Below the pieces are notes generated by a model. The model did not search any database, was not told where the DNA came from, and saw only the letters and a list, made by a program, of their open reading frames with translations. Source: an uncultured virus (IMG/VR IMGVR_UViG_3300050035_000427) (taxonomy: Duplodnaviria; Heunggongvirae; Uroviricota; Caudoviricetes). Taken from it: a DNA stretch of 64,000 nt. The translations under genes and the position numbers were made by a program. Of the stretch, positions 4,740 through 58,251 are shown in pieces. The DNA lies in IMG/VR virus record IMGVR_UViG_3300050035_000427. One strand, given 5' to 3'. Every line of letters starts with the position of its first letter. Within the stretch, counting starts at the first letter, position 1.

Positions 4740-4824
4740 CCCAGTTTACTGACACAAGTCTGAACTTCGCAGTATTAGAGAGGTGAGCAGAACATCGTTC
4801 ACCTTTTCTATTGCGAGGATTCCA

Positions 4825-6201: not shown

Positions 6202-7191
6202 ATGACGAAACTGCCTTTTGGACACAAAATCTCGCAGGCTAATCCAACATGGGATGAAGTGTGCCTTGAGATGATTCTGGAGAAGTACCCGGACTGCGAC
6301 CAGAAAGCAGTGGAAAACTATCTGAAATTTGTAGCGGATGGAAAACAAGTAAATGGAAAATTAGAAGGTCATCATACCTTGATGAGAGCTGATTTTCCTC
6401 AGTATATAGACACACCTGTTAACATCGTTAAGCTGACAGCACGCAATCACTTTGTAGCTCACTACTTGTTAGCAAAGGCGGTTCCATCATCTTCCAGTAT
6501 TCAAATCACTTTTTATCTCATGGCCAACATGAAAAGGGCTATGTATCTAAAATTGCAAGAAGTTTATAAGATGGCAGATGTATACGAAGCCTCTAAACTT
6601 CACATACCTTCGACAAAGGGGTTCACTCCAGTTTATAACCCAGATACTAAAATGGTTGTACTCATGTCTAAAACAGATCCTGTAGTGGTTTCAGGACAGT
6701 TTAGACATCACACAACAGGAACTACTTCAGTGAGAGACAAGCAGAGGAACTGTTTTCGTGTTCCCAAAGACGACTCTAGGATAATTTCCGGAGAATTACA
6801 ACCAATCAACAAAGGAAGAAAAGTTCGTATGAATACAGTAACGGGAGAAACTGCTTCTATGATTGCTGGAGATGTCAGGCTAGAAGATCCCAACTGGGTT
6901 CATCCCTCTACAGGAAAAGTAGCTGTAGTTGATTCAGAAGGAAATACTTTTTCTGTCTCAAAAAATGATTCTCGTTTTCTTTCAGGTGAATTACGTGGTG
7001 TAATGTCAGCTGCCTCTGAGGATACTAGAAAAAGAATCGGAAATGCTCAGTTAGGTAGACATCCTTCTCTGGAATTGAGAAAATTGTGGAGTAAGCGACG
7101 TAAAGGACGGGTTGTTTCACAGAAGACAAGAGACAAAATCAGTGCCTCTCATTTTCTTATGCATCAGAAAAGGAGAGAAAATGTCATTTAA
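6202..7191 (+). CDS. HNH homing endonuclease with repeats and NUMOD3-like tail
   Basis: EGHHTL...NIVKLTARNHFVAHYLL; repeated xKxDxR..SGEL units; basic C-terminus. Confidence 0.8.
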   Translation: MTKLPFGHKISQANPTWDEVCLEMILEKYPDCDQKAVENYLKFVADGKQVNGKLEGHHTLMRADFPQYIDTPVNIVKLTARNHFVAHYLLAKAVPSSSSIQITFYLMANMKRAMYLKLQEVYKMADVYEASKLHIPSTKGFTPVYNPDTKMVVLMSKTDPVVVSGQFRHHTTGTTSVRDKQRNCFRVPKDDSRIISGELQPINKGRKVRMNTVTGETASMIAGDVRLEDPNWVHPSTGKVAVVDSEGNTFSVSKNDSRFLSGELRGVMSAASEDTRKRIGNAQLGRHPSLELRKLWSKRRKGRVVSQKTRDKISASHFLMHQKRRENVI

Positions 7192-10216: not shown

Positions 10217-10843
10217 CTATTTGAAGTGAAGACAGTATCTTCTATGTCCTCCATAAACTCCCTTGGTGACTTGAATGAACTTCGCTCCACATTTAGGACA
10301 GGTGTAATCATGCAATTTAGTATTCTCAGTTAAATTCACTCTTGTAGCAACGGAAGATTGAGACTGTTTTCTGGGGATATTCCAACTGTTAGATATTTTG
10401 TCCTTGTGATCCTTGGTTTTTGGTACTCCAGTAAGTTTATCAGATAATGCCTTGGCTGCTTTTCGATGAATTTCTTTAGTTCCTTCAGGATCGTCAATCC
10501 ACTGCTGTTTCTTGAATTGACTCAGCTTTCTTTTGGTCTCTTCGTTGGCTCGACATCCGTGACCACCGAGAGTGAGATTGTACCCGATCTTGGGATCAGA
10601 TGAACGAAGAAGAATGATCCAGAGAGTTTCAAATTCGTTCAACTTGTCTATACTGGAGGTTTCACAAAGAAGTTCCATAGTGAAACTTGACTCTCCATAT
10701 TTTCTCATTGCTTTGTACAAATAGGAATTATCTCCATATTTAGCATTTTTGACATGCTGATTCCATCGTTCTCTCAGTGAAAGAACAGTTTGGCCAACAT
10801 AGAATTTTCCGTTAACGAGATTGGTGATTAAGTAGACGCACAT
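10217..10843 (-). CDS. GIY-YIG homing endonuclease (NUMOD3)
   Basis: CVYLITNLVNGKFYVGQT...AMRKYG...GYNLTLGG. Confidence 0.85.
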   Translation of the reverse strand: MCVYLITNLVNGKFYVGQTVLSLRERWNQHVKNAKYGDNSYLYKAMRKYGESSFTMELLCETSSIDKLNEFETLWIILLRSSDPKIGYNLTLGGHGCRANEETKRKLSQFKKQQWIDDPEGTKEIHRKAAKALSDKLTGVPKTKDHKDKISNSWNIPRKQSQSSVATRVNLTENTKLHDYTCPKCGAKFIQVTKGVYGGHRRYCLHFK

Positions 10844-11542: not shown

Positions 11543-12676
11543 ATGGCTACTCTTTCGAGAACTCAGCAGCAGACAGCGCAGTTGGGTCAGTTGCTGAAAA
11601 CCGCAGGCGGACGTCAGAAGCTCGCAGCTTCTCTCGGACCCTCCCTGAGACGCCGCCGTGACTATATGTCGATTGCCCGCAAGGCACTCATGGTGGAAAC
11701 CCTTCCGGATGGCGCACTTCCCATCTACGACAAGGAATTTGACGCGACTGGTAAGTCGTTCGTCGAGGCCTTTGTGGTTGGTGAAGAAGGCGGCGACATT
11801 GTCCGGGTAACCAAGCCCATTCGTGTGACGGTTCCGACGTTCGAAATCGTTGCCAATCCCATGATCCCGATCACCCAGATCAAGGAACGTCGCTTCGACC
11901 TCGTTGCCCGTTCTCTCAATCTGGCCAAGGCAGAAGTGGGCGCGACTGAGGACGGCTATGTGTTTGGCCTGTTCGACGCCGTCGCAACCGCAGCCACAGC
12001 GGCGACCCTCGTTGCCGGCACTGGCTCGACGGACTACGTTTTCAACGAAGACCTCAACATCTTCGTGGCGACGTCCGGCATCACCACTCCTCCCGTTGCT
12101 TGGGTCAGCGGCGGACCCTTTGCTGTTGGTGCTTACACGACGGGTTCCGATGGAAACCTCTATGTTTGCATCAAGGCAGCAACCACACAGAACCCGGTAG
12201 TGGGCGGCGGCGGTTATGCAGCTGGCTACTGGCTGTTTGTCGGCACCGACACCTTCGCTGTCAAGGGAATTGACGTGGACTCGATGGCTGATGCATTTGG
12301 CCAGGTTCAGCGCCATGACCTTTCGGTGGCCTATGTGTTCTTCAACCCGCGCGACTATGTCGACCTGTTGAAGTGGACCGATGCGAACATCGACCGTGAG
12401 ACGCAGCGCAAGCTGTTGAAGACGGGCGTGATGGGATACCTCTGGGGCGCCACTCTGCTCCAGTCTCGTAAGATCAACTATGGTGAAGTGTACGTTCTGG
12501 CCGATGCCGAGTTCTTGGGCGTCATCCCCGAGCGTATTCCGCTCACGGTCATGTCAGCCGACCGTCCGGACCTCCGCCAGATCGGCTTCAGCATCTTCGA
12601 GAATTTGGGCTTCCTTGTTTTCAACCCGAGCGGAGTCCAGCGCATCAACGTAGTACGTGGCACCGGCAACGTTTAA
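11543..12676 (+). CDS. Major capsid protein (HK97 fold) with inserted CBM-like module
   Basis: RRRRDYMSIARKALMVETLPDGALPIYDKE, VPTFEIVANP, RRFDLVAR, QIGFSIFENLG; strong codon bias; ggag RBS. Confidence 0.85.
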   Translation: MATLSRTQQQTAQLGQLLKTAGGRQKLAASLGPSLRRRRDYMSIARKALMVETLPDGALPIYDKEFDATGKSFVEAFVVGEEGGDIVRVTKPIRVTVPTFEIVANPMIPITQIKERRFDLVARSLNLAKAEVGATEDGYVFGLFDAVATAATAATLVAGTGSTDYVFNEDLNIFVATSGITTPPVAWVSGGPFAVGAYTTGSDGNLYVCIKAATTQNPVVGGGGYAAGYWLFVGTDTFAVKGIDVDSMADAFGQVQRHDLSVAYVFFNPRDYVDLLKWTDANIDRETQRKLLKTGVMGYLWGATLLQSRKINYGEVYVLADAEFLGVIPERIPLTVMSADRPDLRQIGFSIFENLGFLVFNPSGVQRINVVRGTGNV

Positions 12677-12777: not shown

Positions 12778-13911
12778 ATGAACAGCGTTATCAAACAAAG
12801 CCTCACTTCCATTCCTCACGATCCTGTCTGGGTCGACACCTACCTAGAATTCATTACCAACACTCCTACTCCCACAGAATCCTTCGACAAGCACCACATC
12901 CTGATGGAGAGCATCTTCCCTGACTTCCGCAGTCTCACCAAATTCCCCTGGAACATCAAGCGGCTTTCTTATGCTGATCATCTCATCGCTCACTATCTAC
13001 TTCGCAAGGCCATTCCTTGTGGAGCAACCAACGGAGCATTCCGCCTCATGGTGGGCCTCAGATTCGGCGAGCTACGTGCCAGCGGTTACGATCTTGAACT
13101 TCTTTCCGACATCGCAGCAGAATTTGAACTCATCCGTCGCATGAACGATTTTTCCATCAAGGGTTACATCAGAATCTATCGCGAAGACGACGTCACTGTC
13201 TGCAAACCTAGCCAACTCTCTAACTATGAAGCTGAAGGTTGGAGCTTAGTCTACCCCGAACAACAGTGGATTTACAAAGATGACGAAGAACGTCGTGTTC
13301 TGAAAACTGATCTTCCTCCTCTCCTCCTCGATGGTTGGGAATGCGGAAGATGCTATCGTGCTACTGATTCCACTAAACAGAAACTTTCCGATTGGAGTTT
13401 AGCCAAGCATAAACAAAGAACTGCAGAACCTAATGGTTATTCCTTCATACCTAAAGGAGATCAGCACCATCGTAGAGTCCTAGGCATTTCGGAAGAAACC
13501 AAGCAAAAGATCCGTGAAACTCTCATGGGGCGTACTCTAGCACCAGAGCATGCCGATAAGGTTCGTGTTGCTACAATTGGCAAATCCTGGACCTGGTCCT
13601 TGGAATCCAGAGCAGCCAAGTCCCAATCCATGACAGGAGAGGGCAACAATCGCTTTGGCAAGCCTGGTTACTGGAAAGACAAGACCAGACCTCAGTCAAC
13701 TCGTGACAAAATGTCCGCTTCTCAATCCGCTCGCACTGATAATGCCTTCTGGAAAGGTAAGGTCGGTCCACACAAAGACCATCTTCAATCTCAGAAATCT
13801 CGTGACCAGATAGCTCTCAAACTCACAGGTAGAATAGCTTCTGAAGAAACTCGTCGTAAGATGCGTGAGGCCCACGCTCTAAGAAAGAAACTATCAAATC
13901 CAGTAAAGTGA
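12778..13911 (+). CDS. HNH homing endonuclease with NUMOD3 repeats
   Basis: DKHHILM...NIKRLSYADHLIAHYLL; SEETKQKI and GEGNNRFGK repeats. Confidence 0.8.
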   Translation: MNSVIKQSLTSIPHDPVWVDTYLEFITNTPTPTESFDKHHILMESIFPDFRSLTKFPWNIKRLSYADHLIAHYLLRKAIPCGATNGAFRLMVGLRFGELRASGYDLELLSDIAAEFELIRRMNDFSIKGYIRIYREDDVTVCKPSQLSNYEAEGWSLVYPEQQWIYKDDEERRVLKTDLPPLLLDGWECGRCYRATDSTKQKLSDWSLAKHKQRTAEPNGYSFIPKGDQHHRRVLGISEETKQKIRETLMGRTLAPEHADKVRVATIGKSWTWSLESRAAKSQSMTGEGNNRFGKPGYWKDKTRPQSTRDKMSASQSARTDNAFWKGKVGPHKDHLQSQKSRDQIALKLTGRIASEETRRKMREAHALRKKLSNPVK

Positions 13912-21407: not shown

Positions 21408-22232
21408 ATGAAAGGGTACTACGTGTACATGTATCTTCGATCTAAGTCTTCTCCTAACGGAGAAATTGGAACTCCGTACTATGTTGGAAAAGGGAATGGA
21501 AGTAGAATTCAGGAGTTTCATGGAAGGCACATCGCAGTCCCAAAATCTTCAGAAAATAGACGGACGGTTTCTGAAGGGCTTAACGAAGCTGATGCTTTTC
21601 AACTCGAGATGCTCCTCATTCATCAGTATGGTAGGATAGATCTTGGAACTGGATGCCTTCACAACCTTACCGATGGAGGAGAAGGTGCGAGAAGGTCACT
21701 TAGGAAACCTCAATCAGAGGCGTTAAAGGCTCGTAAGAGTGTGATCATGAAGGAGTGGTACTTAAAGCATGGTGTTTCAAAGGAAAGACGAGATAAGATT
21801 CGTACAACTTTAACCAGGTACTACCAGCATAATACCAATCCTCGTGCTGGATCAGTAACGTCTGAAGAACAGAAGACGAAAGTAAGTCAGGCTATGAAAC
21901 AGGTATGGTCCGTTCAAGAACATCCAATGAAGGGGAAACCTAGGAGTGAATCTACTAAACAAGCCATGAGTGTGGGTATGAAAGAGTACTATAAAAATGG
22001 AGGAATACCTCCAGGATTAGGAGTTAGTCCAAGTGTACTTACACGCGAGAAAATAAGTCAAAAGTTAACAGGAGTTAAGCATTCTGAAGAAAGACGTAGA
22101 CGTCGAAGTGAACAAATGAAATCTATGTGGGCCAAAAGAAAGGCAGAAAAGAATGACGGGAATCGAATGGTACCAGTCTTGGTGGCAGGACGTTCCGTTG
22201 CTTATCTCCGAGACCAATGTCATCTATCGTAA
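21408..22232 (+). CDS. GIY-YIG homing endonuclease with NUMOD3 repeats
   Basis: YYVYMYLR...PYYVGKG...YGRIDLGTGCLHNLTDGGEG. Confidence 0.8.
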   Translation: MKGYYVYMYLRSKSSPNGEIGTPYYVGKGNGSRIQEFHGRHIAVPKSSENRRTVSEGLNEADAFQLEMLLIHQYGRIDLGTGCLHNLTDGGEGARRSLRKPQSEALKARKSVIMKEWYLKHGVSKERRDKIRTTLTRYYQHNTNPRAGSVTSEEQKTKVSQAMKQVWSVQEHPMKGKPRSESTKQAMSVGMKEYYKNGGIPPGLGVSPSVLTREKISQKLTGVKHSEERRRRRSEQMKSMWAKRKAEKNDGNRMVPVLVAGRSVAYLRDQCHLS

Positions 22233-36331: not shown

Positions 36332-37084
36332 CTAACCACCAGTACAAAAAGGACAGATGGGACTTGTAAGGTTGCGATTAACGTGCCATCGAAGATGTGC
36401 CAACTTCTGTATCTGACCTGTTGCTGACGCTAGTTTTCCAGATTTGGAAGCGGCATATCGCTGATGTTCCGTCGTTCTTAGTGAGGAGAGTTGTCCATTT
36501 TGCACTGCTTTTTGACCGGATTTCTTTCCGTTTTTACGAGCTCTACCACTACGAACGTGATCTTTTCCAGCGGCTATTCCTGCCTTAACCTGATGCTCGT
36601 GAGTTCTTAGCCTTGCCAGGAGTCCAGATTCCACAGCGGCCTTCCCCAGCAATCTAGCATGTTCGATCTGACGTTTTCTTCCATGCTCATACATTAGAGA
36701 GTAGTTTTCCAGTTCTTGCTCAGTTAGGTGGGAAACCCAAACTTTGCGACTAAAATTACTCATCATAAATAGAACTCTTTGAAAAGGAACATATTTTGGA
36801 GCACAGCTTGATAGAAAGTAATGAGCCTTGAAATGATTGGCCGGTGCCAGGCATATCCTGTTGTTTGGGTCATTTCTGTACTGAGGAAATTCATTCTTAG
36901 GCAGAATGTGATGAAACTCTCCAGTGTCGGCTGTACAGAGGGATTCTAAAAAAGTGAAATACGATGAAAAATCACTCTCTGATAACCGATTAGACAAAGA
37001 CTTTCGTAGATAATCAAGTATTATCACAATAGGTAATACTGTTGTGAGGAGAATATCTTGCAAATTGGGTTCACCGGCACGCAT
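36332..37084 (-). CDS. HNH homing endonuclease (start uncertain)
   Basis: EFHHILPK...NRICLAPANHFKAHYFL; G/K-rich repeats. Confidence 0.75.
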   Translation of the reverse strand: MRAGEPNLQDILLTTVLPIVIILDYLRKSLSNRLSESDFSSYFTFLESLCTADTGEFHHILPKNEFPQYRNDPNNRICLAPANHFKAHYFLSSCAPKYVPFQRVLFMMSNFSRKVWVSHLTEQELENYSLMYEHGRKRQIEHARLLGKAAVESGLLARLRTHEHQVKAGIAAGKDHVRSGRARKNGKKSGQKAVQNGQLSSLRTTEHQRYAASKSGKLASATGQIQKLAHLRWHVNRNLTSPICPFCTGG

Positions 37085-46027: not shown

Positions 46028-48079
46028 ATGAAACAGTACCTCACACTTGCAGTTCTAGCTTTCTCTCTTCCGATGTGGGCTCAGAGCACGGTTGCAACCG
46101 GAGACTCTAGAACAGTCACTGAGCCCATCTTTCCGTCAATCTGTGCAAGAGTGAATGCAACAAAGTACATCAAGCAGACGACTGCTGTGAACATTGATCC
46201 CTGGAATTCAACATGTGGATCTACTGGAGGAACCTTTGGGATTCTCTGGTGCACTGGAGGCACGGATTATCAGCCCTCGTCTTCGTCGAGCAGCTATGTC
46301 TCGGCGGAAACTCTGGACAACACGGCTGTACAGAATGCACTGAACTCTTGTCCCAGTGGTCAGGGAGTTGAATTGATCCCGGGCACAAGTGGTCAAAATG
46401 CTTTCGTCCTCGCGCCGTTCAGCATCGTAAACAGTTCTGGAGCAGGAGTAAATCTCATTGTTGATGCAGGCATTCACGTGTTTGCCTCGCGCAATCTGTC
46501 TGACTACGGTGGCACCAACTGTGGACTGACAACTAACTCTACCAGTGATTGCAATCACTGGATCACTTCGCCCAGCACGACTGGCGCTGGCATCTATGGC
46601 TATGGAGTGCTTGATGGACGTGGATGGTCTGCTTACATCGGGCAAACAACTCATGGATTCTATGCCAATCGCATTCTAGCCTACTGTGATGCTCATGGTG
46701 GAGCCATAGCTGGATCTCCCGGTTGCCCGAACACAACTTCTGGTGTGAACTCTTACGGGCCAAACGGGATCAATCTGATTGGCACAACCAATTTCACCAT
46801 GTACAAGATCTCATTGTGGAACAGTGGAAACTTCCTTATTAACTGGCAGAGTGGCAATGGGTTCACTGCCTGGGATGTGAAGCTGATCGCTCCGTTCGAA
46901 GTTTCGAATACGGATGGTTGGGATCCTCTCAACTCGACTAATGGTACGTTCACTCACAGCTTCATAAGTGTTGGTGATAACCATATGGCTGTGAAAGCAA
47001 CATCAGGAGCTTCCTCCAACATCACGTTCTCAAATTCGCAAACCGGCGCTGGAATTGGAGTGGCAATTGGCACGAATGCTACAAACGGGATATCCAACGT
47101 CCTGGTAGATACTTTGGTGCAAAATGGAAATCTCTACAGCACTCAGAGCGCAGGAATAATGATTGGATCGAGCACCGCAGACGGTGGCCTTGTCAACAAA
47201 GTGACCTATCGGAACGTCTGCATGGTGAACGAGTACAACTCGATTCGTTTATACACCAACTATGGCGGTAACACTGGGTCAAATATTCCTGTCTATCAAA
47301 ACATCCTGCTGCGTAACATCACTGTGTTGCCCAGTACTGCTCCCTACACCACAGGCAACTCAGGCAGATATACCTTCCAGGGATTAAGTGGACATCCAAT
47401 AATTGCCCAAATCGACAACTTGCACATCCTGGGTACAAATCAAGGTGTCGCTGCTCAGTCAGGAGTAACGACTGATCAGTACTCGGCCATATACCTTGGT
47501 CCTGGGACGGTCGATTCCACGCTTCTAACCCAGTTTTCTGGTGGTACAGGAGTCACTACCTCTGGATCCACCACTTCCACTACGCAGTACGCTTGCACCA
47601 GCACAACCTGGCAGCCACTGATTGGCGAATTGAACATCAAGACTTCGGTTTCCAACAACAATCAAACAGCGACTGTGATAGCCTTGGCTCCGTTCACCCT
47701 ACAGGCCGTCCTACAGCCATCGACAGCAATCAGCACAAAGGAATCTCCGGCTCTCACAGCCTCAGTGAATTTCTATGACAATTGTTTCACAACTCCGACA
47801 AGTTGTTCACCAATCGGAACTGTTGCGCTTTCAGGAGATGGGACATATGCTGCCTATACTCTATCCAGCGGAACTTCACTGGGAACTCACAACTACATAG
47901 CTTATTATCCAGGAGATTCGAATTATCCAGCATACACATTTGGATCAGTCACGGTCACTGCAGTAACAGCGCCACCTGCTGCAAAGTCGTATGCACCCAT
48001 TGTGATTGGTGAATTGGTGACCCCGGCAGGTTTCGAACCTGCGACCCTCTGCTTAGAAGGCAGATGCTCTATCCACTGA
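46028..48079 (+). CDS. GH28 polygalacturonase-like beta-helix protein with C-terminal Ig domain
   Basis: Signal peptide; GYGVLDGRG, NTDGWDP, ISVGDN; AYYPGDSNY (Big-like). Confidence 0.8.
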   Translation: MKQYLTLAVLAFSLPMWAQSTVATGDSRTVTEPIFPSICARVNATKYIKQTTAVNIDPWNSTCGSTGGTFGILWCTGGTDYQPSSSSSSYVSAETLDNTAVQNALNSCPSGQGVELIPGTSGQNAFVLAPFSIVNSSGAGVNLIVDAGIHVFASRNLSDYGGTNCGLTTNSTSDCNHWITSPSTTGAGIYGYGVLDGRGWSAYIGQTTHGFYANRILAYCDAHGGAIAGSPGCPNTTSGVNSYGPNGINLIGTTNFTMYKISLWNSGNFLINWQSGNGFTAWDVKLIAPFEVSNTDGWDPLNSTNGTFTHSFISVGDNHMAVKATSGASSNITFSNSQTGAGIGVAIGTNATNGISNVLVDTLVQNGNLYSTQSAGIMIGSSTADGGLVNKVTYRNVCMVNEYNSIRLYTNYGGNTGSNIPVYQNILLRNITVLPSTAPYTTGNSGRYTFQGLSGHPIIAQIDNLHILGTNQGVAAQSGVTTDQYSAIYLGPGTVDSTLLTQFSGGTGVTTSGSTTSTTQYACTSTTWQPLIGELNIKTSVSNNNQTATVIALAPFTLQAVLQPSTAISTKESPALTASVNFYDNCFTTPTSCSPIGTVALSGDGTYAAYTLSSGTSLGTHNYIAYYPGDSNYPAYTFGSVTVTAVTAPPAAKSYAPIVIGELVTPAGFEPATLCLEGRCSIH

Positions 48080-48090
48080 GCTACGAGGCC
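48015..48090 (-). tRNA. tRNA-Arg(UCU)
   Basis: Cloverleaf, loop ctTCTaa, encoded CCA. Confidence 0.93.
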
Positions 48091-48320
48091 ACGACTTCTT
48101 CAGGTAATGGATCGCGGCAATACTGCCTTAGATTCCGATCACAAGACCCGATGCTCTTGTAATTTATCCTACCCTCTCGCAGTGTCATGTGATTGCAATC
48201 ACTGGGAGTGTCCTCATTCTCGAGACATTCATCTTCCCAGTAGCACACTGGACAGATTTCATACACATGACGCACGTCTTCGAGAGTGTGATTACCGCAA
48301 CAAGGACAAGGAAATAGCAT
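48081..48320 (-). CDS. Cys-rich CPCC domain protein
   Basis: FPCPCCG...YEICPVCYWEDE...CNHMTLREGRINY. Confidence 0.8.
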   Translation of the reverse strand: MLFPCPCCGNHTLEDVRHVYEICPVCYWEDECLENEDTPSDCNHMTLREGRINYKSIGSCDRNLRQYCRDPLPEEVVAS

Positions 48321-48333
48321 GTCTCACCAAACT

Positions 48334-48410
48334 TGGTGACCGTGGAGGGGATTGAACCCCCGACCTGCGGTTTAGGAAACCACCGCTCTATCCAACTGAG
48401 CTACACGGTC
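48334..48410 (-). tRNA. tRNA-Arg(CCU)
   Basis: Cloverleaf, loop ttCCTaa, CCA. Confidence 0.92.
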
Positions 48411-48579
48411 ATGCCTAACTTCTCTTTCAGGTACTCTCTCATCTGATACACTTCGTTCGGCTTGCACCAGATGTACACCGGACCCGTTGGTGCGGGTATA
48501 AGGCTCTCAGCAAATGCTCTTTGGAGCATCTCCAACGTGATATCTCCCGCATTGGATTGTTTCAGTTCCATGGATGTTA

Positions 48580-48655
48580 TGGTGCGCCCGAAGGGACTCG
48601 AACCCCCAACCAACTGGTTAAAAGCCAGATGCTCTGACCATTGAGCTACGAGCGC
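48580..48655 (-). tRNA. tRNA-Lys(UUU)
   Basis: Cloverleaf, loop ctTTTaa, CCA. Confidence 0.93.
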
Positions 48656-48710
48656 ACAGTGCGTTTGCCAGGCTCGTCTGAAGGTTTTCGCATTGTGACA
48701 CTCCTCTCTC

Positions 48711-48885
48711 AAAACTGATCTTAGAACCGGATCAGGGATTCCGGCAGGTTGTTAGCTGATCCGGTTCCTCGATTGATCAGGAGCGTTGAACTAGGTTTAC
48801 CGAACTAGACGATCCGGATTACATGAGCACGGAGTGCTCGATGCGCGAATAGCCTCATCCTCTGTCTGAACCTCTACCTGAACAA
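48711..48885 (-). promoter_or_regulatory. Putative Arg-codon leader with terminator-like hairpin
   Basis: AGG/AGA-rich mini-ORF, then a 12-bp stem (48724-48735/48756-48767) plus a 6-bp outer stem and T4. Confidence 0.4.
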
Positions 48886-48905
48886 CTCTCCTGAACCTCT
48901 AAACT

Positions 48906-48954
48906 TGGGGCCGAATCGCCTCGTGCACAGACGATATCTACCTCCGACTCGGCC
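48906..48954 (-). ncRNA. Mini tRNA-His-like hairpin
   Basis: 10-bp terminal stem followed directly by CCA (G-1:C73-like); inner hairpin loop CUGUGC. Confidence 0.45.
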
Positions 48955-48967
48955 AACATCGGTCATC

Positions 48968-49498
48968 TCAATAGAACAGGTACTTCTTCCACTTTTCCAT
49001 GCCGGCACCCATAGAACGAATCAGGTTCCGGTTGGTGTGAATGGTCAATGGACGAGGGTAGCGAATCAGTTTCATGTCCTTGATATCGCTCAGATCCCTG
49101 TCGCCCTTCTTCTGGTTGCAAGCCTGACAAGCCGTGACCAGGTTCTCCCAGCAGTTCCTTCCACCCTTGGACTTCGGTACAACGTGGTCCCAGGTGAGAT
49201 TCTTTGCTGAGAACTGAACACCGCAGTACTGGCAGGTGTAACCGTCGCGAAGGTAGATGTTCCGTCTGCTCAACTCCTGCTGACGGTGTGGCACCTTCCG
49301 GTACTTCACCAGCCTGACTACGCAAGGAAGAAAGAATCCTGGACGAACCAAGAGGTCATACTCTTCCTCAGACTTGGCAACTCCCTTGATTACCATGCAC
49401 AGTGCCCGCTGAGCACTCGCATAGCGCAGCGGCTCGTAACTGGCATTCAGTACGAGAACCGGAGTCGACTTGATGAGAGTGTTGGTTGCGGACAACAT
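48968..49498 (-). CDS. HNH endonuclease (McrA-like)
   Basis: VLVLNASYEPL...RDGYTCQYCG...DHVVPKSKGG..WENLVTACQACN. Confidence 0.9.
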   Translation of the reverse strand: MLSATNTLIKSTPVLVLNASYEPLRYASAQRALCMVIKGVAKSEEEYDLLVRPGFFLPCVVRLVKYRKVPHRQQELSRRNIYLRDGYTCQYCGVQFSAKNLTWDHVVPKSKGGRNCWENLVTACQACNQKKGDRDLSDIKDMKLIRYPRPLTIHTNRNLIRSMGAGMEKWKKYLFY

Positions 49499-49520
49499 GG
49501 TGGTTTCCTTTCTTGAAAAA

Positions 49521-49554
49521 TGGTGGAGGATCGGTCCGGAATGACTTCACCCCC
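49521..49554 (-). ncRNA. tmRNA-end-like / Ala microhelix
   Basis: GGGGGUGAA...CCUCCACCA with G3:U70 and A73; only 34 nt. Confidence 0.4.
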
Positions 49555-49558
49555 AAGT

Positions 49559-50185
49559 TCAGGCTGCCGACTTGATAGAGTCTAAAATTCTCACACATCT
49601 GGTCAAGTACCTGCTTCCTGAAGAATCACTCAATCCGACTTTTCTTAATGCTTGAGAAACAGTTTCAGACGTTCTTAGAGCTTCAAGCAACTGTTCATCT
49701 GAAATTCTTCCTTCGCTACTTCTACCCACTTTGTTTCCGCAATAGGTGGGCAACTGACTGTCACAATTGGGACAAATACCTCTGAAGTTACTGCGAGAAT
49801 TGTTGGATCGCACACCATCTATGTGATCTAGCCGAAGAGATATGGGTTTTCCATTCCACTCGTCAATCCCACAGATTAAGCACTTTCCTCCTTGTTCCCT
49901 TACAACCCTTTCCTTCTTACTGCCATACCCTAGATCTTCAAAGGGAGTAGCAGCTGATCTGGCGAGTATCTTGGCAGCCCGTTTCTTTATCGCCTCTGCT
50001 GACTGAGAATTTTCTCGAAAGGTGACGTACTTTTCATGATGTTCGGAGTACGCCTTCCTGCTCTTCTCACTCCTGCTCCGATTTACCTCCGGAGTCCAGG
50101 TCCTTGAATGACTACATTTGGAAGAGCAGAAATTTCCTTCTCCGTATGAGCCATCATGTTCCTTACCACACTTCTTGCAGATCAT
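49559..50185 (-). CDS. HNH homing endonuclease
   Basis: CKKCG..HDGSYG..FCS; CLICG...LDHIDG..NNSRSNFRGICPNCD. Confidence 0.85.
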   Translation of the reverse strand: MICKKCGKEHDGSYGEGNFCSSKCSHSRTWTPEVNRSRSEKSRKAYSEHHEKYVTFRENSQSAEAIKKRAAKILARSAATPFEDLGYGSKKERVVREQGGKCLICGIDEWNGKPISLRLDHIDGVRSNNSRSNFRGICPNCDSQLPTYCGNKVGRSSEGRISDEQLLEALRTSETVSQALRKVGLSDSSGSRYLTRCVRILDSIKSAA

Positions 50186-50226
50186 TCTAAGGGACTCCTT
50201 ATACTAAAGAATCCCCTAGTTCAAAT

Positions 50227-50304
50227 TGGTCGCAGTGAAGGGATTTGAACCCCCGACATCTTTCTTATGAGGAAAGCGTTCTCACCAGGCTGAACTACAC
50301 TGCG
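50227..50304 (-). tRNA. tRNA-Met(CAU), elongator type likely
   Basis: Cloverleaf, loop ctCATaa, paired 1:72, CCA. Confidence 0.88.
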
Positions 50305-50339
50305 ATTTATTCTTCGAACTACACTGCGATTTATTCTTC
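50292..50339. repeat. Perfect 24-bp tandem duplication over the tRNA 5' end
   Basis: gaactacactgcgatttattcttc occurs twice. Confidence 0.9.
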
Positions 50340-50674
50340 GTCATTTCCGTTCATCAAGTTTCTCCTGGTGGCATTCCAAACACTTCTGCTTGAGAGGCCA
50401 CTCGTTGTTACACGTCGTGACCTCTGTTGAGTTGCATGAAGGACAGTGAATCGAGGCCTTATCCAGCCATGCGAGCAGTTCCTGAAACTTCCTGTCGTCC
50501 TGCATATTCGGCCTTGATGTACTCAACTTCCTTGCTGTTGCAACTCTCGAGCTTCCGCCCGACCTTCCAATCCTTCTTGCGCTGCTCGATGACAAACTGA
50601 GTCCAAGTGTAAGAAGACGAGTAACTCGACTTCTCCTCGTAGCAGCGGAACCAAAGACCGTTGAAGTTCAAATA

Positions 50675-50950
50675 CTATCCGTCATACCACGAACGAGGGA
50701 CCTCCCCACCTGGGAGACTTACCTGCAGTTCTTGACAGATGAACCTTGCAACATCTTCCGGATGGACTTCTCCGTCGCTCGTCTTCTTCCAGCGACCCCG
50801 GTCGATGTTGTCTTGTGACAAACCCATCAACTCACTCAAATCCTTGTGATGCATCCGACCATCCGGAAATCTCACGAACAAGTCGGCCTTGCCAATCTTG
50901 AAGAGGAACGTCACTCCTCGAACTACGATCCTACGCATGCGGGACTTCAT
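50675..50950 (-). CDS. Hypothetical protein
   Basis: 91 aa ORF inside the tRNA array. Confidence 0.55.
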   Translation of the reverse strand: MKSRMRRIVVRGVTFLFKIGKADLFVRFPDGRMHHKDLSELMGLSQDNIDRGRWKKTSDGEVHPEDVARFICQELQVSLPGGEVPRSWYDG

Positions 50951-51180
50951 GAGGACCTTTCAGTGTCTTTTCCATCCTGGAGAAGCACCCTTCGAGTTGA
51001 ATCAACGCCACGACACCAACTACAGCCAGACTGACAAACATCCCCACTAAACATCCGAACAGAAAGGCAAGATGCACCAGAGCGGAAATCTCATCAGGGT
51101 TCATGCCATTCTGATACTGCGTTTCGCTTCTCCAGCGAACTTTTACCTGCTGCGAGAGAGAGACGGACGGTTGTCGATAC

Positions 51181-51207
51181 GTTTCAACCCACGCTCAAAA
51201 GAGCGAC
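51181..51207 (-). repeat. Solitary type I-C-like CRISPR repeat unit
   Basis: GTCGCTC-TTTT-GAGCGTGGGTTGAAAC; single clean copy, no cas genes in window. Confidence 0.55.
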
Positions 51208-51321
51208 ATTTGATCGAGGCCAGGTGCCGGTTGACAATCCACCACGTGCCTCTTCCCAGGATAGACGCGCCTCTCCGATCAGGACTGTTCCGACCACCGG
51301 AGACTACCCTAGACTAAACTT

Positions 51322-51729
51322 TCACCACTCGAAGTCCTTTGCAAGATGAACATTCTTCACCTGCATATTCTTCGTCGGAGTAAATCTAAGTGTCACAGTT
51401 CCGCCTCCTTGAAATTGTTGGATCGGTAACCAGTAGCACTTTTCTGTAGCGGGCAAGTAAGCAACTACCACATCAATCTCTTCAGACGTGTACTTCTTCT
51501 TGTATCCGCTATTTCGGCATTCAGCCGATAGACCCACTTCAACAGAATCCTTCGTCAAGCTACAGCTGCAATACTTCACTTGAACCCTGAGAAGTTCCTT
51601 TCCGTTGTCGACCACCAAGTCGTACCTGGCGTCTACAGAAGGAACGCTCACAATCCATCCCAACTCGGTGGCTCGGAGCATGACTTTCAGCTTTCCGATC
51701 TCACCCTTTTGATGAGTGCTTGCTAGCAT
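51322..51729 (-). CDS. PD-(D/E)XK endonuclease (intron-associated type)
   Basis: KGEIG...RYDLVVD...RVQVKY...KYTSEEIDV. Confidence 0.85.
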   Translation of the reverse strand: MLASTHQKGEIGKLKVMLRATELGWIVSVPSVDARYDLVVDNGKELLRVQVKYCSCSLTKDSVEVGLSAECRNSGYKKKYTSEEIDVVVAYLPATEKCYWLPIQQFQGGGTVTLRFTPTKNMQVKNVHLAKDFEW

Positions 51730-51751
51730 ATCTCATCAATACTCAAAACTT

Positions 51752-51827
51752 TGGTGCGAGCGGAGGGGATCGAACCCCCGACGTCCCGGTTAAGAGCCGG
51801 TTACTCTACCAACTGAGTTACGCTCGC
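51752..51827 (-). tRNA. tRNA-Lys(CUU)
   Basis: Cloverleaf, loop ctCTTaa, CCA. Confidence 0.93.
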
Positions 51828-51839
51828 ACATCTACAAAA

Positions 51840-51921
51840 AGGCTCTCCGGGGAGGTGGGCCATCCCTCCATACACTCCTCGCGAAAGAGAGTGTGTCTTG
51901 CCACTATGAAACGACCGGAAA
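51840..51921 (-). ncRNA. Non-canonical tRNA-like RNA (Glu-like)
   Basis: 7-bp acceptor, D-arm with AGUGG, enlarged anticodon loop containing CUUUCGC, abnormal 9-nt T-loop, no CCA. Confidence 0.5.
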
Positions 51922-51929
51922 CTTACAAA

Positions 51930-52120
51930 TTCAACGCCGGTGCTCTATCCAGGCTGAGCTACCACCAAGCGAATGGACCGTTCCGCCGACCTTGATTCCC
52001 CTCTAGAAAAGGAATCCTGGGACTCTTAGGGCATGGTCACTTGCTCTGTCTAAACGGGTGGGTTGGATTCGGACCAACGACCACCGGCTGCTTGTTGGGC
52101 GGAATGATCACACCCGAATC
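51930..52120 (-). ncRNA. Circularly permuted tRNA / YrlA-like RNA
   Basis: 3' half (52055-52089) lies upstream of the 5' half (51930-51968); opened at the anticodon loop. Confidence 0.65.
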
Positions 52121-52122
52121 TT

Positions 52123-52197
52123 TGGCTCCTGAGGAGGGATTCGAACCCACAACCATTCGGTTAACAGCCGAACGCTCTGCCGTTGAGCTACCCAGGA
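52123..52197 (-). tRNA. tRNA-Asn(GUU)
   Basis: Cloverleaf, loop ctGTTaa, CCA. Confidence 0.93.
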
Positions 52198-52445
52198 ACA
52201 CTTGTTATACTGCAACTTCCTCAATCTCGATCTGAACCTTCTTGCTGCTCATCACTTCGTCAGCAACACCGAAGGCAACCTCATAATCCTCAAATCTGGT
52301 TGCCTCGTAGCGATATCCAAACCTCAAAGTGCGGGTGATCGCAGCATCGTCTGAGATGACATAGTTCGATGTATTCGGTACTCTCAAGATGTGCTGCATG
52401 ACCTTACCCTCTACTCCGATTTATGAGATCGGGTACTGCTGAATT

Positions 52446-52521
52446 TGGGGAGTCTAGAGGGATTCGAACCCTCGACTACTGGTGCCACAGACCAGCGTTC
52501 TACCGCTGAACTACAGACTCC
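52446..52521 (-). tRNA. tRNA-His(GUG)
   Basis: Cloverleaf, loop ctGTGgc, encoded G-1 and C73, CCA. Confidence 0.93.
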
Positions 52522-52532
52522 ATGAAATTGTT

Positions 52533-52606
52533 TGGCTGCCTCTGTAGGATTCGAACCTACATATCCTGGTCCAGAGCCAAGTGTCCTGCCATTGAACGAA
52601 AAGGCA
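52533..52606 (-). tRNA. tRNA-Gln(CUG)
   Basis: Cloverleaf, loop ctCTGga, CCA. Confidence 0.9.
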
Positions 52607-52626
52607 ACATGTGAAACCGAACTTGT

Positions 52627-52706
52627 TGGGCAGGAACGGTGGGAATCCATTGACCTCCTGGTTGGAGCCAGAAGGCGTGGAAACCCATTCTTCCGCTGAA
52701 CTGCCC
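52627..52706 (-). ncRNA. Non-canonical tRNA-like RNA (Trp-like)
   Basis: gggcag/ctgccc stem, D-like arm, extra arm, 8-bp stem with CUCCAA loop, T-like arm. Confidence 0.45.
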
Positions 52707-52708
52707 GA

Positions 52709-52876
52709 CCGGGCAATGACTTCTAAGCTACATTCGCCGAAGCGAATGCTGGTCAACCTTCTCACCAGATCCCCGCCGTTGAAGGCGGTGCTTTGTTCGG
52801 ACTCGCCACGGAGGTTCCAGCCTCATGGGTCTGTCCTGGTCTAGTCGCACTGGCCCCTGGAAGGTCCATTGCCCGG
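52709..52876 (-). ncRNA. Unknown structured RNA
   Basis: 10-bp perfect closing helix ccgggcaatg/cattgcccgg; cUUCGg hairpin; several inner helices. Confidence 0.55.
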
Positions 52877-53109
52877 AAACTTTATTGCACGAACGAAAAG
52901 TAGACTAAGAGGCGGTGCAAACTACTTGATGAACAATCCGTCAATCACGCTCTTGGCTTTGTCTTCCGTTCTGACATAGTTCCGGACCACGTAGGTCTCG
53001 GCTATGATGCGAAAGCCGCCATCTCGTAAAGGATGAATCGTATACCCGCGATATATTGTGTCTTCCATACGAATCTCTACTGGAAAACCCAGCATATCGG
53101 TTAATCTTT

Positions 53110-53184
53110 TGGCGGGAAATAGAGGAATCGAACCCCTGAGTTCTGATTTGGAGGCAGACAGTTTACCAACTAGCTTAATTTCCC
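53110..53184 (-). tRNA. tRNA-Trp(CCA)
   Basis: Cloverleaf, loop ctCCAaa, G73, CCA. Confidence 0.88.
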
Positions 53185-53224
53185 GTTGAATCCAGACTTT
53201 CGGAACCATTACTGGAGGTTCCAA

Positions 53225-53755
53225 TTGAAATCTTGCGAAAATTGCACTACTCTTCACGATGGTACTTATGGTTCTGGTCGTTTCTGTTCAATTGGCTGTG
53301 CTAGAGGCTTTGCCACCAAAGCATCTAGGTTAAAAATCAACCAAGAAGTGAGTGCTAAACTGAAGGGTAAACCTGTTCGTAATCGTAGTCCTCATAGTAA
53401 AGAAGTGAAGGAAAAGATACGCAGAAGCATCAATCAAGGATTTCAAATCAAATTCCAAAAGTGGATAGATGACTGGCTTTCCGGAAAGATACATCCCACA
53501 AGAGCCAACTATAGAGTAGTGCACAAAGCATTAGCCATTTTAAGAGGAGATAAGTGTGAACAATGCGGTTGGAAAGAGGTTCATCCGAAAACTGGACTTA
53601 TCCCAGTGCAACTTCATCATATTGACGGTGATGGAGATAACAATTCACCAGATAATGTGAAACTGTTGTGTCCAAGCTGTCATTCACTCACTCTCAATTT
53701 CATGGCTTTGAACTACTACAACAAATTGTCAAAGATCACGCCGTTGTTCGCCTGA
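53225..53755 (+). CDS. HNH homing endonuclease, antisense within the tRNA array
   Basis: CENC..HDGTYGSGRFCS; CEQCGW...LHHIDGDGDNN..NVKLLCPSCH. Confidence 0.85.
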   Translation: MKSCENCTTLHDGTYGSGRFCSIGCARGFATKASRLKINQEVSAKLKGKPVRNRSPHSKEVKEKIRRSINQGFQIKFQKWIDDWLSGKIHPTRANYRVVHKALAILRGDKCEQCGWKEVHPKTGLIPVQLHHIDGDGDNNSPDNVKLLCPSCHSLTLNFMALNYYNKLSKITPLFA

Positions 53756-53772
53756 GCGAATCAATTCAAACT

Positions 53773-53849
53773 TGGTCGGGCCACTAGGGTTCGAACCTAG
53801 GACCTTGGGATTATGAGTCCCTTGCTCTAACCAACTGAGCTATGGCCCG
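53773..53849 (-). tRNA. tRNA-CAU, probably Ile2 (lysidine, reads AUA)
   Basis: Cloverleaf; anticodon arm GGGACUCAUAAUCCC resembles Ile2; Met cannot be excluded. Confidence 0.85.
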
Positions 53850-53877
53850 AACTCGAACTCGGCTCGTGCAAAAACTT

Positions 53878-53954
53878 TGGTGATCCCGGAGGGAGTTGAA
53901 CCCCCAACCTTATGGTTCGTAGCCATACGCGCTATCCAGTTGCGCCACGGGACC
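53878..53954 (-). tRNA. tRNA-Arg(ACG)
   Basis: Cloverleaf, loop ctACGaa, CCA. Confidence 0.93.
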
Positions 53955-54610: not shown

Positions 54611-55684
54611 TCATCGGTCAGTTGGGCATCGGCCATCGTTCAGACGAAGAGTGAACTGAGCGATATGAACTGGCTCATTCTCTTTGATGGCCTTCTGCCA
54701 GTAGAACTGATACTGACTGGCGTAACCTGCCAGCTGGGCATCCTCCAGTGTGAACTTCACAAAGGGGATGAGATTTTTGCCTCCCTCGATGCCGAACAAA
54801 CGGGGACCAAGAGCCTTCCTGATTCTGGCATAGGTGTAGCTGATGTAGATGCCAGGACTGGTGACGTTGCACCAGTTCTCAATGTCGAGGATGGTGTTCT
54901 TCCCGACTGCAGCTGAGTTGAACTGCCAGGCCAGGACGTTCCATGCCAACTGAGGAGAGACTACAGCGTTCTCGCTGGGCTTGATCACCTTGCTAACTTC
55001 TTCGAACAGTTCCTCAGCCGCCACAAGGTTCGCTTCTGCTCCCTCCTTCTCCCGGGAGCGCATCTTCTTGTAGTCCTTGCCCAGAACCAGACCCATCGGC
55101 TTGTGCTGATCTCCCAATCCCAGGCTCTTGAAATGTTCGTGTTGCTCATACCCTGTCAGATATAAGTCCGGAGCACAGAATTCTACGAAGCTCAGATCGT
55201 GTGCTGCATAGGTTGGACGACCGTCAGAGCGGTATATCACGACACCGTTGAACATCTTACAGCCTTCGTACTCTCCGGTGCCGGGAGTCAGTGTGTATCC
55301 TGTGGGCGGCTTCATGTCCCTATCAAATAAGATGAATGGCTGATATCCGGAGATGTGACACCAGTTGTTGAATGCCGTGTACGCTCCCTCTTTCTCGCCA
55401 ATGGTGACTCCCAGCATTGCGACTGGCTTGGCTTTGGTGATATTTGCCAGCGCGGCGGCGATTGCCAGGTTCTTGATGTGCCCGACATGAAGGTCTTTGT
55501 TGAGGTTAGGTGAGAATCCATCCAGAGTTATCTCGGATGGTTTGGCTTTCTCAGGCCATTCCCAGACGGTTGGCGTTACATGGTAGTTGTGGTAAATACC
55601 CACAGATTCATAACGAAATCCCTTGAGATCGAGTGGAGTGAGTGAAGTGACACCAACTCCCACTTGTTCAGGTATAGGATGCAT
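54611..55684 (-). CDS. argS: Arginyl-tRNA synthetase-like protein, compact and C-terminally truncated
   Basis: SPNLNKDLHVGH, YRSDGRPTYAAHDL, TGYEQHEHF, KKMRSR, YISYTYARI. Confidence 0.8.
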   Translation of the reverse strand: MHPIPEQVGVGVTSLTPLDLKGFRYESVGIYHNYHVTPTVWEWPEKAKPSEITLDGFSPNLNKDLHVGHIKNLAIAAALANITKAKPVAMLGVTIGEKEGAYTAFNNWCHISGYQPFILFDRDMKPPTGYTLTPGTGEYEGCKMFNGVVIYRSDGRPTYAAHDLSFVEFCAPDLYLTGYEQHEHFKSLGLGDQHKPMGLVLGKDYKKMRSREKEGAEANLVAAEELFEEVSKVIKPSENAVVSPQLAWNVLAWQFNSAAVGKNTILDIENWCNVTSPGIYISYTYARIRKALGPRLFGIEGGKNLIPFVKFTLEDAQLAGYASQYQFYWQKAIKENEPVHIAQFTLRLNDGRCPTDR

Positions 55685-55773
55685 GAGATCTTCCTCTCCA
55701 ACCACATTCTACCAGAAGATGCCGGAATAAGGCTAGTTTACCCGATCTCTGGTACCGCAACGTAGAGTGAAGT

Positions 55774-56481
55774 ATGAAAAAGACAATCCGTCTCACCGTG
55801 GGCAATGTCGAAACCTCTGGCGCGGAAGCTATTGTCAACGCAGCGAACAGGCATCTCAAGACTGGTCGCGGTGTATGCGGTGCGATCTATGCCGCCGCTG
55901 GCGTGACAGAGCTTGAAACCTATGTAGCAGATCACTTTGAAGGCTGCCGCACCGGCAGAGCCGTGGTGACTCCAGCGTTTGGCATCAGCGGATCCAAGTA
56001 TGTCCTCCACGCTGTTGGTCCGATCTACTCCGAATACACTCCCCTAGAGGCGGCTCGCCTCCTCCGCAAAGCCTATCACTCGATCTTTGAACTCTGCTAC
56101 TCGCTGGGAGTCAAGAATGTCGGCGTCGTGGCGATCTCGTCTGGTATCTACGGGTATCCGGTTGAAGACGTTGCGAACATCGCGGCTGACGAGGCCATGC
56201 GCACCCCTTACAAGGGCGACATCACCTTCTACGTCTGGCAGGACAATCTGGCCGTCTTCGAGAAAGCCTTCGCTTCGATCCTCACTCCAGCAGTTCCTGT
56301 GATCGTCGATAAGTGCGCTGTATGCGATTTGCCGGCTGACCACATCGACCATATCGGCCTTCTTGGAATGGGAATTGACCATCCTTTCAAAAGTTCACTG
56401 CAGCCAGTTACACCAGTATCTGATCCTGTGGACGCGAGCACGCGCAAGGTCTTCACGATGGATGACCCAGCAGTAGTCTGA
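55774..56481 (+). CDS. Macrodomain (ADP-ribose hydrolase) protein
   Basis: AIVNAAN..L..GRGVCGAIY, HAVGP, AISSGIYGYP. Confidence 0.92.
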   Translation: MKKTIRLTVGNVETSGAEAIVNAANRHLKTGRGVCGAIYAAAGVTELETYVADHFEGCRTGRAVVTPAFGISGSKYVLHAVGPIYSEYTPLEAARLLRKAYHSIFELCYSLGVKNVGVVAISSGIYGYPVEDVANIAADEAMRTPYKGDITFYVWQDNLAVFEKAFASILTPAVPVIVDKCAVCDLPADHIDHIGLLGMGIDHPFKSSLQPVTPVSDPVDASTRKVFTMDDPAVV

Positions 56482-58217: not shown

Positions 58218-58251
58218 CAAGTTCGCTGGGAAGGCGAAACGGAGAAACACC

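Follow-up and report, generated by a model that had tools for sequence, protein, structure and literature searches.

A compact, solitary type I-C-like CRISPR repeat at a candidate PAM junction in a peat jumbo phage

The stretch of DNA analyzed here is a 64,000-nucleotide (nt) window from the uncultured virus record IMGVR_UViG_3300050035_000427 (187,058 bases; Caudoviricetes). On its minus strand it carries a single 27-nt unit that resembles the repeats of type I-C CRISPR (short palindromic repeats, clustered and regularly interspaced) arrays. The most striking feature of this unit is where it stands. Some strains of this phage carry it while others that are nearly identical do not, and the DNA that follows it is preceded in its repeat-less siblings by TTC, a protospacer adjacent motif (PAM) of type I-C systems. 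The explanation that we favor, with a confidence somewhat short of even, is that a compact solitary type I-C unit was recently captured at a targeted protospacer, that it replaced the TTC PAM together with about 135 bp of PAM-side DNA, and that it would act as a mimic of CRISPR RNA (crRNA). A first-pass annotation made from the sequence had placed a solitary type I-C-like repeat with a GTCGC 5′ end, a hairpin, a 3′ handle and a shortened stem within 51146-51275, and such a unit was indeed located there, at the position given in Table 1.

The unit, GTCGCTCTTTTGAGCGTGGGTTGAAAC, occurs once in the whole virus record. Folded as RNA (-7.5 kcal/mol), it has a UUUU loop on a 5-bp stem (CGCUC/GAGCG), with 2 nt overhanging at the 5′ side and a tail of 11 nt, and the same hairpin was recovered when the entire 217-nt intergenic region was folded. 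The pattern GTCGCTC-N(2-16)-GAGCGTGGGTTGAAAC was found once in the window and in none of 100 window shuffles, and by an arithmetic estimate about 3e-8 matches are expected; these pattern statistics are non-circular. A covariance model built from 23 real repeats of 31-33 nt scored the unit at 34.6 bits (E 1.4e-7), with 11.2 bits for the next best place in the 64 kb, although the model is partly circular because its sequences were retrieved with the candidate's own ends. It could be argued that the likeness is fortuitous and that the unit is an ordinary hairpin or a tRNA-derived fragment. The surrounding tRNA cluster does contain tRNA-like fragments, and Rfam returned neither CRISPR-DR nor any other family at the repeat, even at E<=10. 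The exact match of 7 + 16 bases, its expected frequency, the shuffles and the covariance score refute this argument, and a chance origin of the repeat is excluded.

When lengths from 25 to 39 nt were permitted, the same pattern matched bacterial genomes in 83 stretches, most of which are true arrays holding tens of copies. Array repeats among these stretches are 31-37 nt long and no match is shorter than 29 nt. Cas1c (TIGR03640) was found above its curated cut-off beside the arrays at 8 of 10 loci with scanned flanks (none at L079 and L038), and Cas5d was found in all five genomes tested. Because Cas1c adjoins the arrays and Cas5d is present in the tested genomes, the class is assigned to type I-C. 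It occurs in Myxococcus, Corallococcus, Gemmatimonadota, Planctomycetota, Eggerthellaceae, Clostridia, Synergistales, and others. The first 7 and the last 16 bases of the phage unit are identical to the array repeats (23/23). The bases G1 T2 C3 G4 C5, invariant in the 23 real repeats, open the phage unit as well, and both have a 2-nt 5′ and an 11-nt 3′ overhang. The tail UGGGUUGAAAC has U-G-G directly after the stem and ends in UUGAAAC, the same as in the arrays linked to Cas1c. The difference is confined to the middle, where a 5-bp stem and a 4-nt loop take the place of a 7-bp stem and a 5-nt loop. At 27 nt, the phage unit therefore departs from the canonical layout (7-bp stem, ~5-nt loop, ~32 nt). 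Moreover, the cellular repeats are arranged in tandem, whereas the viral unit is single and lacks the tandem copies with ~32-38-nt spacers beside cas genes that mark an array.

Type I-C repeats are described as having a 7-bp stem, a 5-nt loop, and overhangs of 2 and 11 nt, and the cut made by Cas5c falls after the last stem base, leaving an 11-nt handle (PMC8524198). Recognition by the Bacillus halodurans enzyme involves the base of the stem, the U-G-G after the cut and the 3′ overhang, while the loop and the 5′ overhang are unneeded (PMC8524198). All of these reported determinants are retained in the phage unit, which loses just two stem pairs and one loop base. As the stem base, the U-G-G and the 11-nt tail are kept, a host Cas5c should be able to bind and cut it. 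The 27-nt unit defines a minimal type I-C hairpin, with a tetraloop on a stem of 5 bp and a handle of 11 nt.

Of the 23 public peat and permafrost runs that were listed, 20 contain the region (six are RNA libraries), and the contigs mapped on window positions 50300-52300 came from two DNA runs and from two RNA libraries. In the RNA libraries, which belong to two studies, the repeat is spanned by contigs at 51178-51444 (X15) and 51059-51319 (X16). Both have an additional A behind 51196, so that the loop becomes UUUUU while stem and handle stay unchanged. In X15 one contig stops at 51178 and 50807-51177 is uncovered; as contigs can show neither RNA ends nor absence, no inference was drawn from either. 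A contig of X11 (record 3) is identical to the window over 51210-51867, including the endonuclease gene that lies upstream, and is without the repeat; it diverges fully left of 51210, 3 nt before the repeat begins. Another joint in X11, skipping 51121-51837, has only 30 bases on one side and was not relied on. A metagenome scan anchored in the 57-amino-acid (aa) open reading frame (ORF) downstream yielded two further contigs, L118 and L119, which are 97% identical upstream and contain neither the endonuclease gene nor the repeat. Their sequence at the break equals the loose end of X11, letter for letter. The repeat-less state is therefore found both with and without the homing endonuclease gene (HEG), which makes the repeat the derived state and its presence independent of the gene.

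Local alignment of the alleles, which was decisive because a global MAFFT alignment misplaced the shared block, showed that homology begins again at 51181, which is the repeat's final C (score 46; none of 2000 shuffles reached it). In the window the sequence is ...TCAA / AT-(repeat)...GAAA / C GTATCGA-CAACCGTCCGTCTC... where the sibling reads ...TCAA / (~135 nt)...GAATGTT / C GTATCGAACAACCGTCCGTCTC...; at the junction itself, L118 and L119 have ...GAATGTTC / GTATCGAAC... and the window has ...TTGAAAC / GTATCGAC... Repeat and AT together stand in place of about 135 nt that end in TTC in the sibling alleles. The CT run in the sequence after the repeat varies in length among strains, and other runs have indels at 51154, 51157, and 51160. 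In type I-C systems, a 5′-TTN-3′ motif (TTC among them) functions as a PAM when it lies upstream of the protospacer, and degradation by Cas3 proceeds in the direction of the PAM (PMC8916207). It is from this degraded side that the 135 nt are missing. The sibling accordingly has the form of a PAM followed by a protospacer, and the window, with a repeat before the same DNA, resembles an array that has acquired the site as a spacer.

A comparable arrangement was encountered on bacterial chromosomes. The nearest genomic look-alike of the phage unit is a single 29-nt unit (L081) in an Isosphaeraceae metagenome-assembled genome (MAG), G004. This MAG, which has cas5d, contains 16 solitary type I-C-like units of 27-32 nt on 16 contigs (L120-L129 and L153-L158). 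Their stems vary yet stay paired, GTCGC and GCGTGG(A/G)TTGAAAC are invariant, and one 27-nt unit shares the fold of the phage unit, a 5-bp stem with a tetraloop. Of 121 genomes in the family, only G004 (seven units) and one other (one unit) have any that are no longer than 29 nt. Eight of the G004 loci were compared with 13 congeners, and five could be aligned up to the junction (L121, L128, and L125 could not). At L122 the bases before the shared DNA are TTC in two congeners, TTT in two and TCC in one; at L129, a clean insertion of 61-62 nt, they are TTC in three and TTG in one; at L120 they are TTC in the one alignable relative; at L127, TTC in one and GAA in two; and at L124, ACT, which is no PAM. 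Since the congeners are kin, each locus counts as one observation. TTC in at least one congener at 4/5 loci, set against a local TTC frequency of 1.46%, gives a conservative bound of P ~5e-5. About 25-30 conserved bases precede the repeat in a G004 subfamily, whose members behave like copies of a small module and not like random array fragments.

Several of the G004 units (L120, L121, L122, L127, and L128) lie between promoter-like boxes and the start codons of ordinary genes, and the genes near G004 units include an ABC transporter and a dehydratase-like gene. This placement, together with the 76 nt that separate the phage repeat from the next ORF, could be taken to mean that such repeats are Cas5c-dependent processing or stabilizing signals in the 5′ untranslated region (UTR) of the downstream mRNA, with no anti-CRISPR role. 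We regard this as extremely improbable, as the literature examined offers no precedent and the repeat-less alleles express the same downstream gene. As a separate observation, L123 (G004:C56:8917-8947), a 31-nt unit about 660 nt before cas5d, has a TTGACG...TAGAAT promoter, and the 23-nt sequence after it is followed by a terminator-like hairpin; part of the 23 nt recurs about 60 nt further on. By its sequence, L123 looks like a host crRNA-like RNA of the CreR type that regulates cas genes.

From these comparisons, the favored capture at a protospacer can be outlined as follows. A repeat from an array would have been captured at a targeted protospacer in one lineage of this peat jumbo phage. 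Two routes are conceivable, an integrase-type event or, once Cas3 has damaged the DNA, repair or recombination against a host spacer. The first effect would be loss of the PAM and hence escape from that spacer. If transcribed, the unit would then be a Cas5c substrate, bound by the host enzyme and cut after G51192. The product, a canonical 5′ handle followed by phage sequence, would be a crRNA mimic that ties up Cas5c, Cas7, and Cas8c in the manner of an RNA anti-CRISPR (Racr). Alternatively, the mimic might direct Cascade at sibling phages that still have TTC.

The carrier of the unit is a large myovirus, with a tail sheath, a major head protein, a clamp loader, and homing endonucleases in number. 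The head protein shares 75.7% identity with its counterpart in the Tunturiibacter phage Tunturi_5, a 309-kb jumbo phage of Acidobacteriota (PMC11924767), and by sequence it is a peat jumbo myovirus related to that phage. The acidobacterial host guessed at in the first-pass annotation fits this identity. No homologue of the 91-aa or 364-aa neighbors was found in Tunturi_5, the word "CRISPR" is absent from the Tunturi paper (PMC11924767), and a literature search on Acidobacteria with type I-C gave nothing usable. The same annotation stated that no cas genes occur in the window, which agrees with our scans: 0 of the 66 window ORFs scanned had a Cas annotation, and the Cas5d and Csd2 families were not found in the 187-kb record. 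The record is about 60% complete, so that this absence holds for these 187 kb; the Cas5d search recovered its target in 5/5 control genomes.

Several points weigh against the capture and mimicry proposed above. The first group concerns the host, as an Acidobacteriota host is deduced solely from the 75.7% head-protein identity, Tunturi_5 has no repeat handle above a reversed-pattern control, and none of 1627 spacers from arrays of class GTCGCTC...GAGCGTGGGTTGAAAC matches the phage (the best exact match, 17 nt, is that expected by chance). The second concerns expression. No sigma-70-like promoter lies at the right distance upstream of the repeat, although the rules of the host may differ, and no terminator was seen after it by inspection; contigs from RNA libraries may hold DNA and cannot reveal RNA ends. 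No acr-like neighbor was recognized, the small downstream ORFs being without family or structure matches. A third group concerns the junction. The PAM evidence at the phage locus comes from a single junction and its statistics are modest: TTC has a local frequency of 2.4% and TTN one of 6%, and because the C at the junction is common to the repeat, strictly only TT counts (~6%). Furthermore, two indels, one of 1 nt at position 8 and one of 2 nt (CT), set the DNA after the repeat apart from that of the sibling, so that, given also the variation among strains, the post-repeat RNA would not guide cleavage of that sibling. Lastly, no array repeat below 31 nt was seen in the 83 stretches, which makes recognition of a 5-bp stem by Cas5c an assumption.

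Solitary repeats are a known feature of viruses, with 2,103 viral units reported (Camara-Wilpert et al. 2023, PMC10651486), and the phage unit appears to be a new member of this class of Racr candidates: it matches a known CRISPR repeat, is intergenic and has no partial repeat nearby. The validated type I-C precedent, RacrIC1, is likewise a single, sense-oriented, intergenic type I-C repeat-like unit with no cas genes nearby; it is co-transcribed with AcrIC5 from a mapped promoter and inhibits type I-C (PMC10651486). By analogy, RNA anti-CRISPR activity of the phage unit is plausible. The unit might then be a dedicated decoy, selected only to titrate Cas5c and Cascade subunits, and the TTC of its siblings would be coincidental. 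Besides the precedent, this is favored by the intact Cas5c determinants, by the sense orientation within a cluster that is likely well expressed, and by the variant with a five-U loop, which keeps stem and handle. Shortened stems are also typical of viral solitary units, as 5 of 13 single-match viral loci are 24-30 nt long (L107, L110, and L111 of the 13 have no convincing hairpin by inspection, and L106 lies inside an array).

Comparison with these other viral units also brings out what the decoy explanation lacks. In L104, L109, L112, L114, and L117, a -10 box precedes the repeat by about 6 nt or a terminator follows it. The IMG/VR contigs L104 and L117 contain small-RNA genes of short-stem type I-C units with their own promoter and intrinsic terminator, and L104 consists of two units 32 nt apart. 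The L105 type, found with L179-L188, has its own promoter and terminator and is kept in 10/10 related contigs from three data sets, with GTCAC instead of GTCGC in 9 of the 10. The units of the L104, L117, and L105 small-RNA genes range from 24 to 30 nt. For Racr candidates a promoter immediately upstream is often reported, and acr genes are frequent though not obligatory neighbors. The phage unit, unlike L104, L105, L109, L112, L114, and L117, has no promoter or terminator of its own. It also differs from RacrIC1 in having no recognizable acr neighbor and a 5-bp in place of a 7-bp stem, in its polymorphism among strains and in its position at the PAM of its siblings, and its activity is that of a candidate. 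An RNA anti-CRISPR role in general is weakened by the missing signals, the lack of a recognizable acr neighbor and the presence or absence of the unit among near-identical strains. Moreover, TTC at 4/5 evaluable G004 units argues against coincidence, and a dedicated decoy is accordingly considered unlikely. Since every L105-type contig has the unit, that family offers no repeat-less allele for a comparison of junctions. No relatives of the viral unit L108 were found. In the viral contig collection, the exact 27-mer, the start of the 57-aa ORF and the post-repeat sequence were each without a match, and the neighboring proteins gave only 9-residue matches or distant endonucleases.

The junction and the deletion also fit an inert scar, that is, a by-product of escape in which PAM and flank were lost and patched with array DNA, and whose RNA has no function. 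The lack of expression signals and the polymorphism in the population would be expected of such a scar, and the flanking non-coding DNA is a hot spot of indels. However, an array repeat that was simply copied ought to measure 31-37 nt. Here the top of the stem has been trimmed to a perfect 5-bp hairpin with all 23 flanking bases intact, and the allele has persisted over several studies and years and has itself diversified. These points leave the scar a doubtful explanation, on a par with the dedicated decoy.

Free-standing homing endonuclease genes destroy their own target upon insertion, while uninterrupted alleles stay cleavable. The phage unit follows the same self-protecting logic, and a real gene of this kind lies 115 nt upstream. 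In contrast to such genes it encodes no protein, cleavage would need the Cas proteins of the host, and its spread can be proposed only by analogy. In this form, the unit would be a one-repeat guide or protein-free homing element: after cleavage by Cas5c, its handle and the native sequence behind it would load Cascade against siblings bearing TTC and the same sequence, a cut sibling would be repaired from the carrier, and the repeat would thereby be copied. The carrier would be immune because its own "PAM" is repeat sequence. In support of this, the geometry is array-like, with neighboring DNA in the place of a spacer, and the chromosomal units of G004 have a like geometry. Viral mini-CRISPR arrays are known to target related viruses, and in them, as in the phage unit, the sequence next to the repeat matches a close relative (PMC11656645). 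Those arrays have at least two repeats and an acquired spacer located elsewhere in the genome, whereas the phage unit has one repeat and its own DNA in place, which matches the sibling next to TTC, but with indels. The missing second repeat leaves a guide without a set 3′ end. The indel in the seed against the only available sibling allele and the variable length of the guide region also speak against it, and loading of single-repeat RNAs by type I-C Cascade is an assumption. We find this explanation very unlikely.

A broader version would cover both phage and chromosomes. Solitary type I-C repeats would be seeded in a PAM-dependent manner at junctions of TTC and adjacent DNA, the insert would protect itself, and the neighboring DNA would become a guide against insert-less copies. 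The whole would be a protein-free exclusion or homing element, with the 27-nt hairpin as its adapted state. We put this forward as a distinctly unlikely, speculative generalization. Solitary repeats and RNA anti-CRISPRs are known but their origin is not, and alleles with and without the unit make its insertion readable base by base. The phage junction and 4/5 G004 loci connect the way in which such units arise with CRISPR targeting or adaptation, and suggest that they may serve as guides, as decoys or as patches that allow escape. To the known class, the locus adds the compact 27-nt architecture, a base-level view of a gain in a natural population, and the placement at a PAM junction. No printed account of solitary repeats at PAM junctions was found by literature searches or by term look-ups in PMC10651486, PMC11656645, and two preprints; supplementary tables of the papers on Racrs, Cracrs, and standalone repeats may list this IMG/VR unit or short-stem type I-C units. 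The 27-nt form recurs in viruses and in one bacterium. If processed, it would offer type I-C tools a compact handle, and it would mark links between phages and hosts in the poorly known Acidobacteriota of peat.

The phage unit is solitary: the covariance model found no second repeat arm in the window at E<=10. This separates it from Cracrs, phage-encoded repeat-like units with type I-C examples that it otherwise resembles in having a repeat-like unit and a possible pseudo-spacer (Liu et al., bioRxiv 10.1101/2024.10.29.618823). In a Cracr, two repeat-like arms flank a short pseudo-spacer that matches the promoter of host cas or creT (bioRxiv 10.1101/2024.10.29.618823), whereas the sequence after the phage unit is native phage DNA common to its siblings. 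Three candidates for a partner were rejected. The first-pass annotation had noted a degenerate hairpin ending in GTGGATTGTCAAC upstream of the repeat. Its distance of 22 nt was confirmed, but it is no CRISPR repeat, being undetected by the repeat model and unchanged in the repeat-less allele L118. Because GTGGATTGTCAAC is ancestral and common to the repeat-less allele, the relic mini-array suggested on its account is unsupported. The hairpin GTTCGCTGGAGAAGCGAAAC, considered as a second or terminal repeat, lies in a stretch of about 51117-51150 whose junction is ambiguous by 4 nt. The repeat model is blind to it, and another copy precedes another gene. The third, GTGGATTGAAAC (exact 12-mer; G000 177679-177692, outside the window), has no GTCGC and no hairpin and is a chance match.

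The second copy of the GTTCGCTGGAGAAGCGAAAC-type hairpin is at 58221-58240 on the plus strand, 11 nt before an ORF starting at 58252, and there are only two copies in the record. The motif GTTCGCTGGrrArGCGAAAC precedes two ORFs that are unrelated to each other, at 11-16 nt from their start codons, and is possibly a 5′-UTR control element of the phage.

The repeat lies on the same strand as 11 tRNA genes (48015-53954), the flanking ORFs, and three HNH endonuclease ORFs. The first-pass annotation had placed it in the tRNA transcript. The shared strand stands, and contigs of two RNA libraries cover the repeat, which is no proof of transcription.

Table 1. Position of the solitary repeat, its parts and the features around it (window coordinates)
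Feature	Position	Strand	Remarks
Solitary type I-C-like mini-repeat (solitary repeat unit, SRU), GTCGCTCTTTTGAGCGTGGGTTGAAAC	51181..51207	-	27 nt
GU overhang	51207-51206	-	Repeat part
5′ arm CGCUC	51205-51201	-	Repeat part
Loop UUUU	51200-51197	-	Repeat part
3′ arm GAGCG	51196-51192	-	Repeat part
Handle UGGGUUGAAAC	51191-51181	-	Repeat part, 11 nt
Predicted Cas5c cut site	51191..51192	-	Predicted from Cas5c biochemistry (PMC8524198); the RNA left would begin with the 11-nt 5′ handle
AT dinucleotide 5′ of repeat	51208..51209	-	Allele-specific with the repeat; sibling homology ends at 51210
Native phage DNA after repeat (GTATCGAC...GCAGCAG)	51147..51180	-	34 nt; protospacer equivalent; TTC precedes it in the repeat-less allele
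17-nt stretch TCTATCCTGGGAAGAGG	51249..51265	-	Also in the HEG+/repeat-less allele (X11 record 3, gapless); absent from L118
GTGGATTGTCAAC, "degenerate repeat end" of the first-pass annotation	51230..51242	-	22 nt upstream of repeat; ancestral intergenic sequence
Hairpin GTTCGCTGGAGAAGCGAAAC	51121..51140	-	40 nt downstream; in a 30-nt stretch absent from L118
57-aa ORF, first gene downstream	50931..51104	-	Hydrophobic core; starts 76 nt after repeat; no family match
PD-(D/E)XK_5 endonuclease ORF, 135 aa	51322..51729	-	Pfam PF11645, E 3.7e-28; free-standing, homing-endonuclease-like
tRNA-Lys(CTT)	51752..51827	-	Nearest upstream tRNA of the 11-tRNA cluster (48015-53954, all minus)

Homing-endonuclease-like ORFs (HNH, GIY-YIG-like, and PD-(D/E)XK) are unusually dense in the window and occur at 4783-5751, 6202-7191, 10217-10843, 12778-13911, 21408-22232, 36332-37084, 48968-50185, 51322-51729, and 53186-53755. 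The one at 12778-13911 follows the gene of the major head protein (11543-12676), whose alignment to the Tunturi_5 head protein is split in two and covers 73% of the query; the capsid gene may contain, or lie next to, an inserted segment. The tRNA cluster shows further peculiarities. A perfect 24-nt tandem duplication (GAACTACACTGCGATTTATTCTTC x2) at 50292-50339 begins inside the 5′ end of tRNA-Met (50227-50304), and a fragment at 52065-52087 that resembles a tRNA T-arm, uncalled as a tRNA, adjoins tRNA-Asn and is probably a tRNA remnant. Two genes adjoin the cluster: a 364-aa ORF at 54611-55705, with a short match to the catalytic domain of arginyl-tRNA synthetase, and a Macro-domain protein at 55774-56481.

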